This document shows, piece after piece, positions 23,560-49,512 of a stretch of DNA of 64,000 bases. The stretch is from Ignavibacteriota bacterium. GTDB taxonomy: Bacteria; Bacteroidota; Ignavibacteria; UBA10030. The DNA lies in assembly GCA_963727825.1 (NCBI GenBank), contig CAVSHO010000009.1, positions 256,001 through 320,000 on the forward strand, given 5' to 3'. Position 1 is the first letter of the stretch. Each line of letters begins with the position of its first letter. A program made the position numbers and the translations under genes. The notes beneath the pieces were generated by a model that saw only the letters and a program-made list of their open reading frames with translations, was not told the DNA's origin and made no database searches.

Positions 23560-24775
23560 TTACCAATCGCGTACAACTTTGCGAGTTCCGATTTGAATTT
23601 CGCGCGGCGAATTCGGATCCAATGCCCATTTGATTCGAGCTATTCCGTCTGCAACCTCGCTGGCTGCTCCGGCATAACTAAGCCGCAGGTGGCATTCCAT
23701 ACCGAAGTCTTTACCGGGAACGGTAACAACAAGTGCTTTCTTCAATAAAAATTCTGCCAATGCCATAGAATCTTTATTTAATGCACTAAAATTCGGAAAA
23801 CAATAGAATGCGCCTTCCGGTTTTTCGACTTTCACTCCAGGAATGGATCGCAATTCTTGGATTACTGTATCGCGGTTTTTTTGTATTGTCGCAACAAGCT
23901 CATCAACACAATTCTGATCTCCTGTCAGTGCTGCTTCTGCAGCCACTTGACAGATGGGCGAATTACATGTCGTTGTTTGACTCTGAATATTTGTTATTGT
24001 TTTAACAAGCTTGCGATTAGCAACAACCCAGCCGATTCTAAACCCCGTCATTCCATATGTTTTGGAAACACCGTTGATAACAACGATATTGGTAGATTCA
24101 ATATCTTTATTTGTGAAGTTGTAAACGGGCGCAAATCTTCTTGCCGTCGAATACAAGTTTGTGGTAAATATCATCCGACAGCAGATAAATATTCTTCTTT
24201 TCACACAGATCAACAATCTGATTGATTAACTCATCTGGAAAAATTGCTCCAGATGGATTGTTCGGACTGTTCACAATAATTACCCGAGTTGATGGCGTTA
24301 TTACTTTTTCAATCTCCGAAAGTTTCGGATAAAAACCACCGTCTGCCGGTGTGACAATTACCGGAACCCCGTTGACCATTTTTACCATTTCCGGATAGCT
24401 AACCCAATACGGAGCCAAAATAATAACTTGATCTCCCGGATTAATGAGAGCATAGAGCAGATTAGATAAGGAGTGTTTGGCACCGTCTGAAACAACCACA
24501 TTTGCGGTATCTATCGTTTTTCCATAATTTCTTTCAGTGTATTGAACAATGGCTTTTTTCAAAGAAGGAATACCATCAGAAGGAGCATACTTAATTTCAC
24601 CTGAATTTAATTTTTCGACGGCACTCGCTATCACGTTCTGAGGGGTTTTATTCTTTGGTTCACCAATTCCTAAGTGAACAATCGCCTCTCCTTGTGCACG
24701 TAATCTTGTAGCTTCTGCATTAAGTTTCACAGTCGGTGACTCAGCAATTGATGCTGCCAGCTTGCTGATATCCAT
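23560..24775 (-). CDS. Class I/II PLP aminotransferase, aspartate aminotransferase-like (frameshift near 24130)
   Basis: GIGEP, PYWVSY, NSPNNPSG, SDDIY, NGVSKTYGMTGFRIGW, KPEGAFY across ORFs 24107-24814 and 23560-24216. Confidence 0.88.
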
Positions 24776-24937
24776 AAAAGTTGCTCCTGATAACAAAATT
24801 ACTAAGGAATGCAATCACTATTGACGATTAACTTAAATTCCTAAAACCATACGAACATAATTTATTAATAAGTTACATTTTTTTTTGAAATATCCAATAG
24901 ATGGTGAGTGCGGCAGATTCCATGTCAAGAAAAATGC

Positions 24938-42857: not shown

Positions 42858-43096
42858 GTTGCACTGATTCTGTATAAATTGCTGAAAGACTTTTTATTTG
42901 TAAACCCCTTCTATTCATCTAATTCGTCAGGACTACTTGAAAGTCTCATCTATTAATGGGATATTCAATCAAAGTTTTTAGATGCTCGCGAGTTCATAAA
43001 GGGGAATTTCATTCTACTTGCGGGGCAATCCAAAGCACAGGCGTATCATTGTTCCAATCCAATTCATCAATATTCAACATCGTAAGGAGTACACTT

Positions 43097-45781
43097 ATGA
43101 TTCGTTCCATCACGTGTTTTTCTATTCTCATTCTCCTTTCTACCGGTGCGCTCCTGGCGCAAATACCACCAATTATCGATAGAGAGATTTTTTTCGGTGA
43201 CCCTGAGATTTCCGGCGCGCAGCTATCGCCAGACGGGAAGTATATCACCTTCATCAAACCATTTAAGAACGTCCGGAATATCTGGATCAAAGAGCGAAAA
43301 GAGGCATTTGAAAAGGCACACCCACTCACCGCCGATACTACGCGCCCAATTCCTGGATATTTCTGGTCGCAGGATTCAAAGTACGTTCTCTATGTTCAGG
43401 ATAAAGGAGGGGATGAGAACTATCGTGTGTATGCAATCGATCCGACAGTCGCAGGCGATCCTGTTCCACCTGCACGCAATTTAACGCCGCAAGAAAAAAT
43501 TCGTGCGATGATCATCGATGTACCTAGGGTAAAACCTAATGAAATTATTGTCGGATTGAATGATCGCGATCCACAGCTTCATGATGTCTATCGAATCGAT
43601 CTTACTACCGGCGAACGAACGCTCATCCGGAAGAACTTGGAAAATATTGCCGGCTGGCAGACAGACCTAAACGGCGATCTCCGGCTCGGTGTGCGTCAGA
43701 CAAACGACGGCGGCATGGAAATTCTGAAAATAGTCGACACCGCATTGACCTCCATCTATACTGTGACGGCAGATGAATCGGTTGATCCGATCCGCTTCAC
43801 TCCTGACGGAAACAGCTTTTATATTGAAACCAATAAGGGGGACGCGCTCGACAAGACACAGCTGGAACTCTTTGATCTCAAGACCGGCACTACGAAGCTG
43901 GTCGAAAAAGATCCTAAGAACGAAGTTGATTTCGGCATGGCGCTCTTTTCGGATGTCACGAACGAATTGCTGGCAACAGTGTACCAGGGCGATGTGATTC
44001 GTGTTTATCCAAAAGAGAAATATTTTGCGAAGAGTTATAACCAATTAAAGAAACATTTTCCTAACGGTAACATCGGTATAGGCAGTACCACGAAAGACGA
44101 GAATCTTTGGCTCGTCAGTGTCAGCAGTGATGTGGATCCTGGTTCGACATATTTATTTGATCGAAAAACAGGCAAGGTGGAATTGCTCTACAAGTCGCGA
44201 CCGAATTTACCTTCAAAATATTTGGCATCGATGACAGCGATTCGTTATACGGGGCGCGATGGAATGGAAATTCCTGCCTATCTGGTATTACCTAAAGGAA
44301 TTCCTTCTAAGAAGCTGCCAACGATTGTCTTTCCGCATGGCGGGCCATGGTCACGCGACTACTGGGGATACAATGGCACCGCTCAATTTCTTGCAAATCG
44401 CGGATACGCCGTTCTCTTACCCAATTTCCGCGGCTCGACCGGTTATGGAAAGAAACTTTTAAACGCTGGAAATAAACAATGGGGCACCGGCTCGATGCAG
44501 CACGACATTACCGATGGTGTGCAATATTTGATTAAAAAGGGAATTGCCGATCCGAAACGGATAGGTATTTCAGGCGGATCATACGGCGGGTATGCAACAC
44601 TTGCAGGTCTAACCTTTACACCCGATTTGTACGCGGCGGGATTTGACATCGTCGGGCCGTCGAATATTATCACACTGTTGAATTCTATTCCCCCTTACTG
44701 GGCGCCTATGAAAAAGACATTTGCCGTGCGTGTCGGCGATAAAGATGATCCTAAAGATAAGGAAATGTTGGAAAAACAGTCTCCACTAAATTCAGCGCAG
44801 AACATCAAAGCACCGTTGTTCGTTGTGCAAGGAGCTAACGATCCACGTGTGAAAAAAGCTGAAGCAGACCAGATTGTCGTTGCGTTGCGCGATCTTGGCA
44901 GGCAGGTTGAGTACATTGTAGCGCCAGATGAGGGACATGGATTTGCAGGAAAAGAAAACCGTATTGCTATGTACACCGCAATGGAACAATTCTTCGCGAA
45001 GCATCTGAACGGTAGAGTGCAAAAAGATGTCCGGGATGTGATCCAGAAAAAATTAGAAGCAATCACAGTAGATGTGAAGACAGTGACCAAACCAAAACCG
45101 GTTGCCGAAGTGAGCAACGAATTGAAGCCAGTGTTCAACAGCACACTCTTGAGACCGGACACGCTCCAGTATGTTACGAATATGGAAATTAACAACCAAA
45201 AAATGAAAATAAGTTCTACACGGATGATCATGAAAGCAACAATTGCCGGAAAAGATATATGGCGAGTAGTGGAGAATTCTTCCGGCGCAATGGGTTCAGG
45301 AATAGACACTCTCGATATGGATGCTACATCATTGTTACCTATACGACGATCTGCAACACAAGGACAGGCAAAGCTCATGATTACCTATTCCGCTAATACA
45401 GTGGAGGGTAAAATACTTATGGGTCCGCAAGAAATGCCGATTAATGCGAAGACCAACAATACCGTTTTTCCAGACGGTGCCGGTATTGAACTTCCTTTGA
45501 GCACACTTCCTCTTGCCGAAGGATATAAAACAACCCTGTACCAATTTGAGATCATGTCGCAGAAGGAAAACGCAATGGGACTGGCAGTTGTTGCCTCGGA
45601 AAAGGTAACAGCTGCTGCAAGGGATTTCGATACGTGGAAGGTTGAACTGACTCCCAAAGAAGGAGAATCCGGTGGAATAAAGCTATGGATAGCAAAAGAT
45701 ACTCGGAGAATTGTGAAAACCGAAACGAAGCTCCCTGCACAAGCAGGTGGTGGTATAGCGACGACGGAATTGGCAAAGTAG
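43097..45781 (+). CDS. Secreted S9 (prolyl oligopeptidase family) peptidase with extra C-terminal domain
   Basis: AAGGAG RBS, signal peptide, PHGGPW, GGSYGG, QGANDPRV, DEGHGF; about 220 extra aa after a P/K-rich linker. Confidence 0.92.
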   Translation: MIRSITCFSILILLSTGALLAQIPPIIDREIFFGDPEISGAQLSPDGKYITFIKPFKNVRNIWIKERKEAFEKAHPLTADTTRPIPGYFWSQDSKYVLYVQDKGGDENYRVYAIDPTVAGDPVPPARNLTPQEKIRAMIIDVPRVKPNEIIVGLNDRDPQLHDVYRIDLTTGERTLIRKNLENIAGWQTDLNGDLRLGVRQTNDGGMEILKIVDTALTSIYTVTADESVDPIRFTPDGNSFYIETNKGDALDKTQLELFDLKTGTTKLVEKDPKNEVDFGMALFSDVTNELLATVYQGDVIRVYPKEKYFAKSYNQLKKHFPNGNIGIGSTTKDENLWLVSVSSDVDPGSTYLFDRKTGKVELLYKSRPNLPSKYLASMTAIRYTGRDGMEIPAYLVLPKGIPSKKLPTIVFPHGGPWSRDYWGYNGTAQFLANRGYAVLLPNFRGSTGYGKKLLNAGNKQWGTGSMQHDITDGVQYLIKKGIADPKRIGISGGSYGGYATLAGLTFTPDLYAAGFDIVGPSNIITLLNSIPPYWAPMKKTFAVRVGDKDDPKDKEMLEKQSPLNSAQNIKAPLFVVQGANDPRVKKAEADQIVVALRDLGRQVEYIVAPDEGHGFAGKENRIAMYTAMEQFFAKHLNGRVQKDVRDVIQKKLEAITVDVKTVTKPKPVAEVSNELKPVFNSTLLRPDTLQYVTNMEINNQKMKISSTRMIMKATIAGKDIWRVVENSSGAMGSGIDTLDMDATSLLPIRRSATQGQAKLMITYSANTVEGKILMGPQEMPINAKTNNTVFPDGAGIELPLSTLPLAEGYKTTLYQFEIMSQKENAMGLAVVASEKVTAAARDFDTWKVELTPKEGESGGIKLWIAKDTRRIVKTETKLPAQAGGGIATTELAK

Positions 45782-45821
45782 TAACTAAATAGCTAGGTCT
45801 TTGAGTATTGTAGATGCAAGG

Positions 45822-45849
45822 GCGGCTCTGGAAACAGAGCCGCTTTTTT
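45822..45849 (+). terminator. Intrinsic terminator of the S9 peptidase
   Basis: gcggctctg-gaaa-cagagccgc-tttttt. Confidence 0.88.
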
Positions 45850-45870
45850 AAATGGAGACAAAAGTTCAGG

Positions 45871-45948
45871 GCATAACTATTTGCTTTGCGCCATACTTAA
45901 CGCAGTGCACTCATTCGGCTAGCTTGAGCCGTTGGTTAGCTGGCGGTG
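45871..45948 (-). mobile_element. attC-like site (degenerate) immediately 3' of the ATPase stop codon
   Basis: Minus strand: TAA-caccgcc-AGCTAAC-caacg-GCTCAAGC-tagccg...GTTAAGT...GTTATGC. Confidence 0.6.
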
Positions 45949-47538
45949 TTATTTTTTATTTCTTGTTTCAAACTTTGATAAATCTAAGATAGCCCTTCTT
46001 ATTGCCCGATAATCATCTGGTGGGACTTCAATAAATTGAGGAGCAACATCTGATTTAGTGCCATCAATCTGTAGCAATCCTTCAGGTGCATGACTTGTAT
46101 TTAAAAGATCAACGTAGCAGCCATAATCAAGTTTATAGACGTCAAAGCGAACTCCAGGTTGGTCTTGTCCAGCAATATTCCTTTTCAATATGTGTAGAAG
46201 ACGGGAATCGAAAAGATAATCAATCAACTTGTTCTGAACATTTGCCTGCAATAGGAATGCTCTTGCGCGTCGATGTGCGATTACCTGCTCAATAATCCAA
46301 TGCAAAAGTTCCTTAGCTTCAATCTTAGAATTAATGGCGGCCTGTTTGTCTCGTTGGAACCATAGAAGTGCAGAGCTTCTAACAATGGGAACAGAAAATG
46401 GATTTGAGGCTGCTCTTTGAGCAGCTATCATTAAAATATTTATAAAATCTCTTGGAACGCCCTCTGACGCGCGTATGAATTCTTCAAATGCATTTCTTTG
46501 AGTAAATGCAACTTGAACAAGTTCAGAAGAAGATTTTGGCACTAGTGGAATTTCATCTTTATCAAGAACAGAAATAAAATGTTTGAAGAGGAGGTCTTGA
46601 AAAAATGTTGTTGCTCGCGTGGCATCATTGTCGAAAACCATAAAATCATCCAAGTTTACATCGGCAGATATATCGGCACCAAGTTCAACACCAAGATAAT
46701 CATTATCTAAACCTGCTTGCTTAAAATTAGATCTCTGCTCAATTGCCGCTATTTTCAAAGTAATATTACGTTGAGGCAAAATTGAACGCCGAAGTAAATC
46801 TGCAAGAATTGGTTGAAGATCGATAGGAATTGCACTCCATTCGTCAAGTAAGAACCAAATTCTTTTCCCAGATAATATGCCGACAAGTTTGGATAGAACA
46901 TTTCCTAATCTGCCAAAATGTACACGATGAATTATTGTGCCAGAATTTTTTATCCTAGCAGAACTACTTTCAGATGCTGCATGAGAATATTTTTGGGAAA
47001 TTGAAAGTTGAGGCACCTTAGGAGAAATTGAAAGCGACACAGAATTGTCTGAACTCGAAGTAGTACCATCGGATTGAATTGTTTCTTGTTCCACTTGCCC
47101 TACAACGGCCACCTCTGTTATTGCCTCAGCAAGCTCATCTAAGACGCCGCCAATTTGGCCTAAATTAAGTGACGAATTCGGTTTTGTAGCTGAATCAAGG
47201 ATTGATTCATGTATTGCAGCAAGTGTATCAAGTAAAAGGCGACTTCCTCTCTCAGCTAAAGGAATCGAAGTGTCAGAATATAAACCTCCTGTCGAACCGA
47301 TATTTCGAAGATCAAGATATACTGGTAAATCGGATGATTTTAATTTTTGTTCTGCTAAAAAAAGAAAAGCATGTGTTTTTCCAGTCCCTCTTCTCCCGTA
47401 AACTATCTGATGATCTGTCGAAGATAGCAGCGAAAGAAGTGCGCCAGCCTCAACGAAGGTCTGGACAAGGGTCGTTCGATCTGCTGTTTCCGATCTTCGA
47501 GTTAGACGAAGGAATATTTTGTTTATTAATTCATTCAT
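45949..47538 (-). CDS. P-loop ATPase, ORC/CDC6-like (STAND-related) family; cassette-borne
   Basis: IVYGRRGTGKTH Walker A, WFLLDEWS Walker B, SEGVPRDFINI, C-terminal YKLDYGCYVDL; AT-rich codon usage. Confidence 0.75.
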   Translation of the reverse strand: MNELINKIFLRLTRRSETADRTTLVQTFVEAGALLSLLSSTDHQIVYGRRGTGKTHAFLFLAEQKLKSSDLPVYLDLRNIGSTGGLYSDTSIPLAERGSRLLLDTLAAIHESILDSATKPNSSLNLGQIGGVLDELAEAITEVAVVGQVEQETIQSDGTTSSSDNSVSLSISPKVPQLSISQKYSHAASESSSARIKNSGTIIHRVHFGRLGNVLSKLVGILSGKRIWFLLDEWSAIPIDLQPILADLLRRSILPQRNITLKIAAIEQRSNFKQAGLDNDYLGVELGADISADVNLDDFMVFDNDATRATTFFQDLLFKHFISVLDKDEIPLVPKSSSELVQVAFTQRNAFEEFIRASEGVPRDFINILMIAAQRAASNPFSVPIVRSSALLWFQRDKQAAINSKIEAKELLHWIIEQVIAHRRARAFLLQANVQNKLIDYLFDSRLLHILKRNIAGQDQPGVRFDVYKLDYGCYVDLLNTSHAPEGLLQIDGTKSDVAPQFIEVPPDDYRAIRRAILDLSKFETRNKK

Positions 47539-47568
47539 AATATTTCTATATATAGTTATTATTTTTTG

Positions 47569-47671
47569 CACCGCCAGCTAACATGTAATTAGATAAACTT
47601 ATTCTATGTATCATTTTATCACGGATACAATATAGACTAAATTTATATTTTATTTATTAGATGCGTTATAG
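47569..47671 (-). mobile_element. AT-rich attC-like site upstream of the ATPase
   Basis: Minus strand CTATAAC...ATAAATTTA/TAAGTTTAT, TCTAT/ATAGA, TGTATC/GATACA stems...GTTAGCT-ggcggtg. Confidence 0.5.
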
Positions 47672-47899
47672 GCAGACATCTCTTCTATCATTGTAGGTTC
47701 TTCTTTGAAGTTGGAGAAAAGTAGTAGTTGTTTCGTACTCCCGCGTAGCTGCAACTACTTTGTGATAATGTAGCTCTGTTTAGAATCATTGTCAATAAGC
47801 CGGAGGCCTATTACTATCACGCGCGATGCGCGTGTCTGATCAAGAAAACTGCCTGCTCATGTTCATCCCACATTTCCGCACTTTTTTTTCTGCAACTAC

Positions 47900-47928
47900 T
47901 TGACAAGTCGTCTGCCAGATTGTATATT
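47900..47928 (+). promoter_or_regulatory. sigma70 promoter of the SAM riboswitch-metY-metA operon
   Basis: TTGACA-17-TATATT. Confidence 0.6.
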
Positions 47929-47989
47929 ATTAAAGCGATGGTAAAAGTTATTATCGCCCGGATTAGCAAACGATATAATCCGAAAATGC

Positions 47990-48111
47990 CTCTTATAAAG
48001 AAAGGCTGAGGGAACAGGCCCGTTGAAGCCTTAGCAACCGGTTCCGATTTAATCGGAATGCTGGTGCTAAAACCTGCCCGCGACATGATGTCGTCGAGGG
48101 AACGATAAGAG
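47990..48111 (+). ncRNA. SAM-I (S-box) riboswitch
   Basis: CTCTTAT..AAGAAAGGCTGAGGGA..GGCCCG.TGAAGCCTTAGCAACC...GGTGCTAA..CC...GATAAGAG upstream of metY. Confidence 0.92.
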
Positions 48112-48122
48112 AAGATGCTCAC

Positions 48123-48165
48123 AAGCCTCTTCAGGAAATCTTCCCGTTGGGGCTTTTTCGTTTTA
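48123..48165 (+). terminator. Riboswitch expression-platform terminator
   Basis: aagcctc...ggaa-atc-ttcc...ggggctt-tttcgtttt. Confidence 0.65.
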
Positions 48166-48180
48166 TAGGCGTTCAAATAA

Positions 48181-49512
<1,332 letters not shown>

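Follow-up and report, generated by a model that had tools for sequence, protein, structure and literature searches.

We analyzed a stretch of 64,000 nucleotides from an Ignavibacteriota bacterium (GenBank assembly GCA_963727825.1, contig CAVSHO010000009.1, positions 256,001 to 320,000), which is called the window in the following and whose coordinates are used unless another contig is named. The genome is a 3,124,747-base assembly of 14 contigs with a completeness of 96.8% and is labelled G000; its relatives carry labels such as G002–G015. Between a peptidase S9 gene and an O-acetylhomoserine sulfhydrylase-like gene (metY), the window harbors an open reading frame (ORF) for an ORC/Cdc6-like AAA+ ATPase, which an earlier note, made from the DNA letters, had described as a solitary integron-like gene cassette. 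According to our analysis, the segment 45872–47581 is very probably an integron cassette with a promoterless ATPase gene, which occupies the first position at an attI-type site lacking the integrase gene intI. The features of this unit, as annotated here, are the following:

45949..47538, minus strand, ORC/Cdc6-like AAA+ ATPase of 529 amino acids (Pfam PF24389)
45872..45948, minus strand, putative truncated attC of the ATPase cassette, consisting of the extended R'' arm, R'', L'' and the first part of the variable region
45942-45948, minus strand, extended R'' arm of the truncated attC
45941-45935, minus strand, R'' box AGCTAAC of the truncated attC
45930-45917, minus strand, L'' box GGCTCAAGCTAGCC of the truncated attC
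47539..47581, minus strand, cassette 5' leader, beginning with TTAGCTGGCGGTG, the cassette-borne part of R' and its extension
47582..47638, plus strand, predicted attI-type site (type B), found with a hidden Markov model (HMM) of intI-linked attI; junction between 47582 (G on the cassette strand) and 47581
47636..47800, minus strand, conserved promoter-like module of 165 nt; TTGACA-17-TACATT at 47795-47767 points into the cassette

The ATPase ORF is framed by a perfect 14-bp inverted repeat (IR), GTTAGCTGGCGGTG at 45935–45948 and its exact reverse complement at 47569–47582, just as the earlier note had placed it. Exact copies of the arms occur in the whole assembly at these two positions only; if up to two mismatches are allowed, an arm has three matches in the window compared to 0.15 expected, and none of 100 shuffles reached three. 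The stop codon of the minus-strand ORF (45951–45949) abuts the left arm, and the ATG at 47538 lies 44 nt past the G (47582) of G|TTAGCT. In integron cassettes, the crossover G is followed by the consensus TTRRRY, a start that is complementary to R'' in the attC of the same cassette. The same is found here, where the start G|TTAGCT at 47582/47581 belongs to 14 bp that are perfectly complementary to 45935–45948. From the sequence, one arm of the IR is best read as the R'-side start of the cassette (G|TTAGCTGGCGGTG) and the other as the matching stretch that leads into R'' of its attC; in an excised circle, pairing between the two arms would close the attC stem at its base. The further description in the earlier note, with this start, an ATG about 40 nt later and R'', 5 bp and L'' directly after the stop codon, was also accurate. 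The unit consists of one ORF in the same orientation as the attC, with a leader of 43 nt and a stop codon that abuts R'', and a consensus scan gave no promoter-like match on the minus strand within the leader. The G+C content of the ORF (0.36–0.42, versus 0.45–0.50 in the flanking genes) is uninformative, because the genome mean is about 0.41. Both cassette junctions are unchanged in short contigs from public metagenomes (X4 spans 45777–45975 and X1 spans 47441–47673; the runs may include the source sample), which speaks against an artefact of the assembly.

A perfect 14-bp terminal IR is also typical of insertion sequence (IS) elements and miniature inverted-repeat transposable elements (MITEs), and on the plus strand, the left arm and its neighboring bases make up a terminator-like hairpin (45928–45947). 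It would therefore be conceivable that the arms are transposon or MITE ends, or a pair of hairpins, by chance or as terminators, on both sides of a gene acquired by horizontal transfer. However, no direct repeat is present outside the arms (CGTTG versus ATGTA), no transposase is encoded, the only ORF being that of the ATPase, and the arms are unique in the genome, so that the ends of a DDE transposon with target duplication, an alternative named in the earlier note, do not fit. Moreover, the arms open with GTTAG/CTAAC boxes and continue into sequence of the attC family described below. We also inspected loci from other phyla that carry homologous ATPase genes (62 usable of 68 fetched), where the longest framing IR was 11 bp and shuffles gave 8–11 bp. 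As none of the 62 loci has a framing IR above shuffles, the frame derives from the integron system and not from the gene. An origin unrelated to integrons is thus considered extremely improbable.

A BLAST search of the intergenic DNA against the genome identified 45902–45940 as a copy of a repeat that occurs many times on contig C11. By pattern search and alignment, the repeat family was found at C11:157–27,237, at the ends of contigs C12 and C6 and as solitary copies on C1 and C11, and a whole-site profile gave 22 matches on C11:1–27,256. In gene direction, the stop codon is followed by R'' (mostly GCCTAAC), a short variable stem, L'', a variable region of 100–170 nt, L', a spacer and R' G|TTAGG, after which come the ribosome-binding site and the ATG of the next gene. 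The 22 complete sites are 153–230 nt long, with the consensus CTAAC/GTTAG for R''/R' and AAGCTG/CAGCTT for L''/L' and with a covarying stem. RNAalifold paired R'' with R' and L'' with L' in these 22 sites, with compensatory changes in 5 of 18 pairs. In a hand-refined structure of 19 pairs, 97.4% of cells are paired versus 88.8% in shuffles, and 38 double-sided changes stand against 13.7, values that were not reached by any of 500 shuffles; sliding the partner by 1–3 columns lets the pairing fall to 11–48%. Two single bases remain unpaired on the R''–L'' arm, C and A on the top strand, which correspond to G and T on the bottom strand. Extrahelical bases of such a kind have been described for attC bottom strands. 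One complete array site, taken as single-stranded DNA, folds end to end (z -2.41, 2/200). Judged by these sequence features, the repeat family presents itself as true attC of the classical R''-L''...L'-R' architecture, which is only long, and the atypical attC-type system suspected in the earlier note is not supported by this architecture, the covariation and the two single-base bulges.

The array on C11 belongs to a complete integron. The search for an IntI-like recombinase, which had been recommended in the earlier note, was positive: an IntI is encoded at C11:29893–30834 (TIGR02249, 447.9 bits versus a cut-off of 265), divergent from the array. This cut-off was exceeded in none of 14 control genomes, and the nearest named IntI homolog shares 62% identity. 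The first cassette joins an attI of the type A defined below at C11:29612. As a side observation, the integron spans C11:1–30,834, with attC sites down to the contig start, and its first cassette has about 2.4 kb with several ORFs. Above-cut-off intI genes are also present in 12 of 15 other genomes of the genus, in some of them twice, which is at odds with a lineage devoid of integrases as considered in the earlier note. Given the complete integron here and intI in 12 of 15 genomes, the integrons of this lineage are ordinary, though long-sited, and not atypical. The cognate IntI is thus encoded in the same genome, but off the window's contig; this contig of 996 kb gave no integron-integrase match, in line with the earlier statement that no integrase lies nearby. 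Perfect complementarity of 13–17 bp between cassette start and R'' was found in 14 of 21 listed cassette pairs on C11, and the first cassette also fits; among the exceptions, three have a foreign element in R'', and the others are mispaired, with a site missed by the pattern, or pair over 5–8 bp. The 14 bp of the window lie within this range of 13–17 bp and are the normal cassette signature of the lineage. Four identical ends of an element lie on C11 of G000 (L042:5997–6084, L042:8459–8546, L042:19804–19891 and L043:3835–3922). At three of them the same sequence stands in place of the R'' box of an attC, which suggests that the element was inserted into attC sites; in Rfam, the ends gave only a sub-threshold match to Ms_IGR-7 (34.5 bits versus a gathering score of 45). 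Many further complete, partial and orphan half attC sites are scattered over the genome far from intI, at C11:75–100 kb, C11:149–152 kb, C1:310–337 kb, C9:200 kb and C9:403 kb.

In the window, an HMM of the 5' half of attC matches 45886–45939 on the minus strand (positions 3–57 of 65, 23.7 bits, E 7.8e-7 for the window and 3.8e-5 for the genome), whereas the HMM of the 3' half (L'-R') has no match in the 64-kb window at E<=10. At the 3' end of the ATPase gene, the 5' half of an attC is therefore present and the 3' half is absent, with no L' box, spacer and crossover G in the remnant. The covariance model of all 22 sites assigns only 10.8 bits to the window site, with the 3' pairs broken, compared to 93–173 bits for attC sites of relatives outside the training set, and shuffles fold as well as the remnant 45871–45948 does (z -0.54 and -0.14). 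Since an attC without the L'-R' arm cannot fold, excision by IntI would no longer be possible, and the ATPase cassette is probably fixed in place. The earlier note had called this attC collapsed and perhaps locked in; the second part is a reasonable conclusion, whereas the first is only nearly right, as the site is truncated and not collapsed. The other matches of the covariance model in the 64 kb reach 11.7 and 6.9 bits. The former, at 24745–24828 on the minus strand, is a weak partial match to the variable region only (E 0.089) and is probably due to chance. A 13-nt motif complementary to the window L'' gave no match genome-wide with up to one mismatch, which is a weak test, as the window L'' may be mutated. 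An orphan 3' half-site at C11:151135–151240 was considered as the missing partner and was ruled out, as its L' differs. No attC family of Rfam was matched, and the only above-threshold Rfam match near the cassette is the S-adenosylmethionine (SAM) riboswitch mentioned below; a match to Chlorobi-RRM at 45899–45959 (24.8 bits versus a gathering score of 45), which has no counterpart in the C11 array, was taken as chance. At 45928–45947 (plus strand) of the window, as at many sites of the array, the bases to the left of R'' are complementary to those to its right. A small hairpin with a T-run behind it results on the strand opposite to the cassette and may block antisense read-through.

On the other side of the cassette, the earlier note had seen a second imperfect hairpin of about 96 bp, running from TAAC to GTT, and had regarded it as an attC of a different style. 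As a single strand, 47576–47674 does not fold end to end and forms an internal imperfect hairpin only (z -1.92 on the minus strand, with 6 of 200 shuffles as good, and z -0.93 on the plus strand). Because only such a weak internal hairpin forms, the stretch is not an attC. We aligned 330 nt of upstream sequence for all intI genes of the genus and distinguished two kinds of attI, labelled A and B without relation to the clinical integron classes. Type A is long and occurs in the C11 integron of this genome and in others, whereas type B is short, lies directly after the junction ...CTAAC| and was found in G002, G005, G008, G010 and G013. An HMM built from the intI-linked type-B sites of these five genomes only (131 positions) matches 47573–47638 with positions 1–67 (26.9 bits, E 1.5e-7 for the window and 7.5e-6 for the genome). 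A profile comparison of both cassette ends thus places the downstream site in the attC family, whereas the upstream site matches attI rather than attC. We regard 47582–47638, on the strength of this homology to intI-adjacent attI, as an attI-type site without intI; it does not lie between intI and the first cassette, as the module and then the metY leader follow instead. Elsewhere in the genome, the same HMM matches C6:36052–36137 (73.9 bits) and C1:187116–187180 (21.7 bits). The C6 site runs to the expected intI start codon and then diverges, which means that intI was deleted in place, and the C1 match adjoins a cassette whose attC is complete. In the alignment, the attC at the end of C6 and the last one on C12 look alike, and for this reason the array of the C6 platform probably continues on C12.

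In the place of intI, the window carries the promoter-like module of 165 nt, which has 18 DNA matches in 7 of 16 genomes of the genus. An attI directly precedes 13 of 17 module copies. Among these 13 copies, a clear TAAC| junction together with a type-B attI is seen in ten, a variant junction in one and a type-A attI in two, whereby the cassette junction itself is visible at only one of the type-A copies (G011). Two of the 17 are ambiguous, and two, including the metY-linked copy of G013, have no attI. A strong attC (at least 60 bits) lies within the 1.5-kb cassette-side flanks at 6 of 17 module loci, and longer flanks add more. In the module alignment, conservation is highest in the columns of the TTGACA and TACATT hexamers and of the spacer between them, and TTGACA-17-TACATT scores 10 of 12 in the promoter scan, which places it among the two best sites in 45700–48250. 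A structured RNA was considered and rejected for the module: RNAalifold yielded -3.47 kcal/mol with 0 compensatory pairs, a two-hairpin model had 69.6% of cells paired versus 69.3% in shuffles, without double-sided changes, and no Rfam family matched. In our reading, the module would be a promoter that drives the cassettes of integrase-less platforms. In the integron and CALIN (attC site clusters without an integron-integrase) literature that we searched, no mention of such a promoter-like module turned up in the text that was accessible, and we do not claim it to be unpublished.

At three of four loci tested by tblastn, those of G006, G011 and G013, the module likewise lies upstream of metY. 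The first gene at these metY-linked copies differs, as it encodes the ATPase here, a phospholipase-B-like protein in G006, a DUF4062 protein in G013 and, in G011, a 153-amino-acid protein without Pfam family, which is followed by a complete attC of 93 bits. The first genes at other module copies code for a TIR protein, a DUF5343-HEPN pair, a DUF4760 protein and a GNAT acetyltransferase. The latter is the first cassette at a second module copy of this genome (C9:619477–619640, L131), which follows ...CCTAAC| and a shortened attI. Past the module, a G+C-rich short repeat (AGCCGGAGGCC...) was noticed in the window (47799–47830), G013:C85, G006:C4 and G006:C5, whereas at other module copies a CCCCGGC...GCCGGGG hairpin follows instead.

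Two histories of the platform come into question. It might have been inherited as a unit of module and attI that is served in trans, to which we give roughly even chances. Alternatively, a full type-B integron may once have been located beside metY and have lost intI by deletion, so that the unit was not inherited without integrase. Such a deletion in place is seen at the type-B attI of C6:36052–36137, intI loss is named as a CALIN origin in the available part of Cury et al. (2016; PMC4889954), and it is common in Xanthomonas integrons beside ilvD, as far as the accessible text of bioRxiv 10.1101/2025.06.18.660453 goes. However, at many loci in 7 genomes intI is replaced by the same 165-nt module with the same boundaries, and no above-cut-off intI locus is among the module matches. 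Repeated independent intI deletion is disfavored, because an identical neighbor would not be expected each time, and we rate decay in situ as somewhat unlikely. Going beyond the inherited, trans-served platform, we put forward tentatively that the genus has a distributed integron, in which conserved units of about 165–220 nt, each made of an outward promoter module and an attI without intI, would exist at several sites per genome. Upstream of metY, one unit would have a fixed place in four or more species, and an IntI encoded elsewhere would load and exchange cassettes in trans. If true, this would explain why the first gene differs per species, several of these genes being defence-like (TIR, HEPN, DUF4062, AAA+ ATPase), and the window would be a satellite whose single cassette became fixed.

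The surroundings of the cassette comprise the following features:

42956..45781, plus strand, peptidase S9/DUF3108 protein gene (Pfam Peptidase_S9 151.1 bits, DUF3108 45.2 bits)
45822..45871, plus strand, host flank with a G+C hairpin, a T-run and the last host-like bases (AAAGTTCAGGG ends at 45871), from sequence reading
47900..49512, plus strand, unit of promoter-like site (promoter scan 11 of 12), SAM riboswitch and metY
47990-48111, plus strand, SAM riboswitch RF00162 (72.6 bits)
48202-49512, plus strand, O-acetylhomoserine sulfhydrylase-like gene metY (Cys_Met_Meta_PP 458.7 bits)

The S9 gene is conserved in G013, G011 and G015 with 71–76% DNA identity, and the homology of its flank to G013 reaches 45847 by BLAST and, by eye, includes an identical 11-mer at 45861–45871. 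The G+C hairpin and the subsequent T-run were recognized past S9 at about 45822–45850 by reading and were not listed by the terminator scan; with this qualification, the position that the earlier note gave for the unit, past a terminator and between core genes with metY on the other side, was correct. An empty S9–metY junction, which the note had proposed to look for in relatives, is absent among those examined, and in the single-contig relative G015 the two genes are about 460 kb apart. In G011 and G013 other genes follow S9, and their orthologs lie on contig C1 in this genome; those of the G011 genes are found at C1:61545–65336 with 83–89% identity, and no attC remnant was found beside them. 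As S9 and metY are separate elsewhere and the former S9 neighbors are on C1, the S9 side is a rearrangement or deletion breakpoint and not a target site.

These data also bear on the secondary chromosomal site that the earlier note had proposed, i.e., the insertion of a free cassette by IntI into a non-att site (attG type) between core genes. The contig without intI is compatible with such an event, insertion of cassettes by IntI outside att sites has been reported (bioRxiv 10.1101/2022.09.11.507474, accessible text), and secondary insertion is one of the CALIN origins listed in the part of Cury et al. available to us (PMC4889954). However, the sequence that abuts the 5' junction matches the intI-adjacent attI of five relatives (E 1.5e-7), and the same arrangement of attI and module precedes cassettes at 13 of 17 module copies. 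Furthermore, a whole attC would be expected after such an insertion, yet the 3' half is missing, and S9 and metY are not neighbors in the relatives examined, hence there is no simple target. Insertion into a secondary site is accordingly considered very unlikely.

The cargo gene itself encodes a protein with a PF24389 domain match (39.1 bits versus a cut-off of 27), which covers the N-terminal residues 20–68 only. A homology search gave 2772 homologs at E<=1e-3 among 8000 scored, and all 120 among the matches listed carry PF24389. The homologs are full-length, share 41–64% identity (best non-self 64%) and are scattered over many phyla, and the Walker A motif GRRGTGKTH is invariant in 28 aligned homologs. 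In 40 relatives the ATPase was not found, neither by protein nor by DNA, so that it is not a syntenic gene of the lineage, a possibility that the earlier note had left. The AlphaFold model is of moderate quality (predicted local distance difference test 65.3, predicted template modelling score 0.54) and matches generic AAA+ chains of ORC, Cdc6, RFC and RuvBL with TM scores of 0.25–0.5. A sequence search of the PDB gave nothing below E 0.55, PADLOC gave 0 families at E<=0.1, the NCBIfam model DS41_1_antiphage reached 15.6 bits versus a cut-off of 370, and the only match in PHROGs was a weak one to a family without assigned function. From the patchy spread and the company in the arrays, it is only a guess that the ATPase has a role in conflict or defence. 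In two metagenome contigs (L150, L151), a homolog with 51% identity lies directly past an attC-like site (1333–1488, 23.7 bits, E ~1e-4), whereby no matching R'' was seen after its stop codon in these contigs. This gives a hint that the ATPase family may be cassette-borne elsewhere too.

Taken together, our favored explanation for the ATPase cassette at the integrase-less attI runs as follows. An IntI acting in trans would have inserted the cassette via attI x attC recombination at G|TT, whereby the enzyme may have come from the C11 integron or have been a second-type IntI whose gene is deleted here. A later deletion or rearrangement would have removed the distal part of the attC (the second half of the variable region, L' and the crossover G) and anything beyond, and the remnant would have been joined to the S9 flank at about 45871/45872. 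Without the L'-R' arm, the attC would be unable to fold and the cassette would no longer be excisable. The gene is probably transcribed from TTGACA-17-TACATT in the module at the place of intI.

Several points weigh against this explanation. The downstream site fails the full attC model (E 0.16), and its membership rests on the half site and the IR. The exact deletion endpoint is not fixable, as TGAACTT of the host flank also occurs in the attC family and the remnant perhaps extends to about 45862. Of the 131 positions of the attI profile only the first 67 are matched, and this in A+T-rich DNA (bias 15.6 bits). A type-B intI is absent from the assembly, at its 96.8% completeness, and an action of the C11 IntI on the type-B attI of the window is something that we infer. 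Finally, promoter-like matches in the region are not enriched, with 9 versus 7.0 +/- 2.6 in shuffles.

Sedentary chromosomal integrons, such as the Vibrio superintegron, have homogeneous attC repeats. The integrons of this lineage resemble them in the R''-L''...L'-R' imperfect palindrome, the G|TT crossover, the single-base bulges on one arm and the homogeneous sites per array, and likewise in the promoterless single-ORF cassettes co-oriented with attC and the IntI divergent from the array. They differ in their long sites (153–230 nt) and the start/R'' pairing of 13–17 bp, and the window copy differs in that it consists of the 5' half only and lies at an attI without intI. The following comparisons refer to those parts of the respective papers that are accessible. 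CALINs require two or more attC sites, and single attC sites were set aside (Cury et al. 2016; PMC4889954). Proposed CALIN origins are intI loss, rearrangement and secondary insertion (PMC4889954). Like CALINs and the single attC sites set aside there, the window has attC DNA far from intI and a complete integron in the same genome; unlike a CALIN, it holds half of one attC and falls short of the CALIN definition (PMC4889954). In Xanthomonas, integron platforms lie by the housekeeping gene ilvD across species, with the integrase inactivated or lost and the cassettes varying by lineage, as is similar here, and CALINs are also found at conserved loci (bioRxiv 10.1101/2025.06.18.660453). Unlike in the Xanthomonas ilvD integrons, intI is wholly absent at the window locus and a promoter-like module stands instead, and several platforms occur per genome, alongside an intact integron. 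With IntI insertion at non-att sites (bioRxiv 10.1101/2022.09.11.507474), the window shares the solitary cassette away from the integron, whereas the target is attI-like and the attC is incomplete. Thus, the locus is a decayed member of a well-known gene-capture system and stands apart from known systems in three ways, namely the attI without intI, the half attC and the recurring promoter-like module.

The locus shows a cassette on its way to a fixed chromosomal gene, in which the attI junction and the R'/R'' signature are kept and half of the attC and the integrase are lost. Standard attC models would miss this cassette, because it reaches only E 0.16 with the full model and single sites are usually discarded, whereas lineage-specific profiles of half-sites and attI recover such cassettes. 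If the module is a working platform that is served in trans, integron activity in these bacteria would not be confined to the intI-linked array, and this would bear on the origin of attC clusters without integrase.

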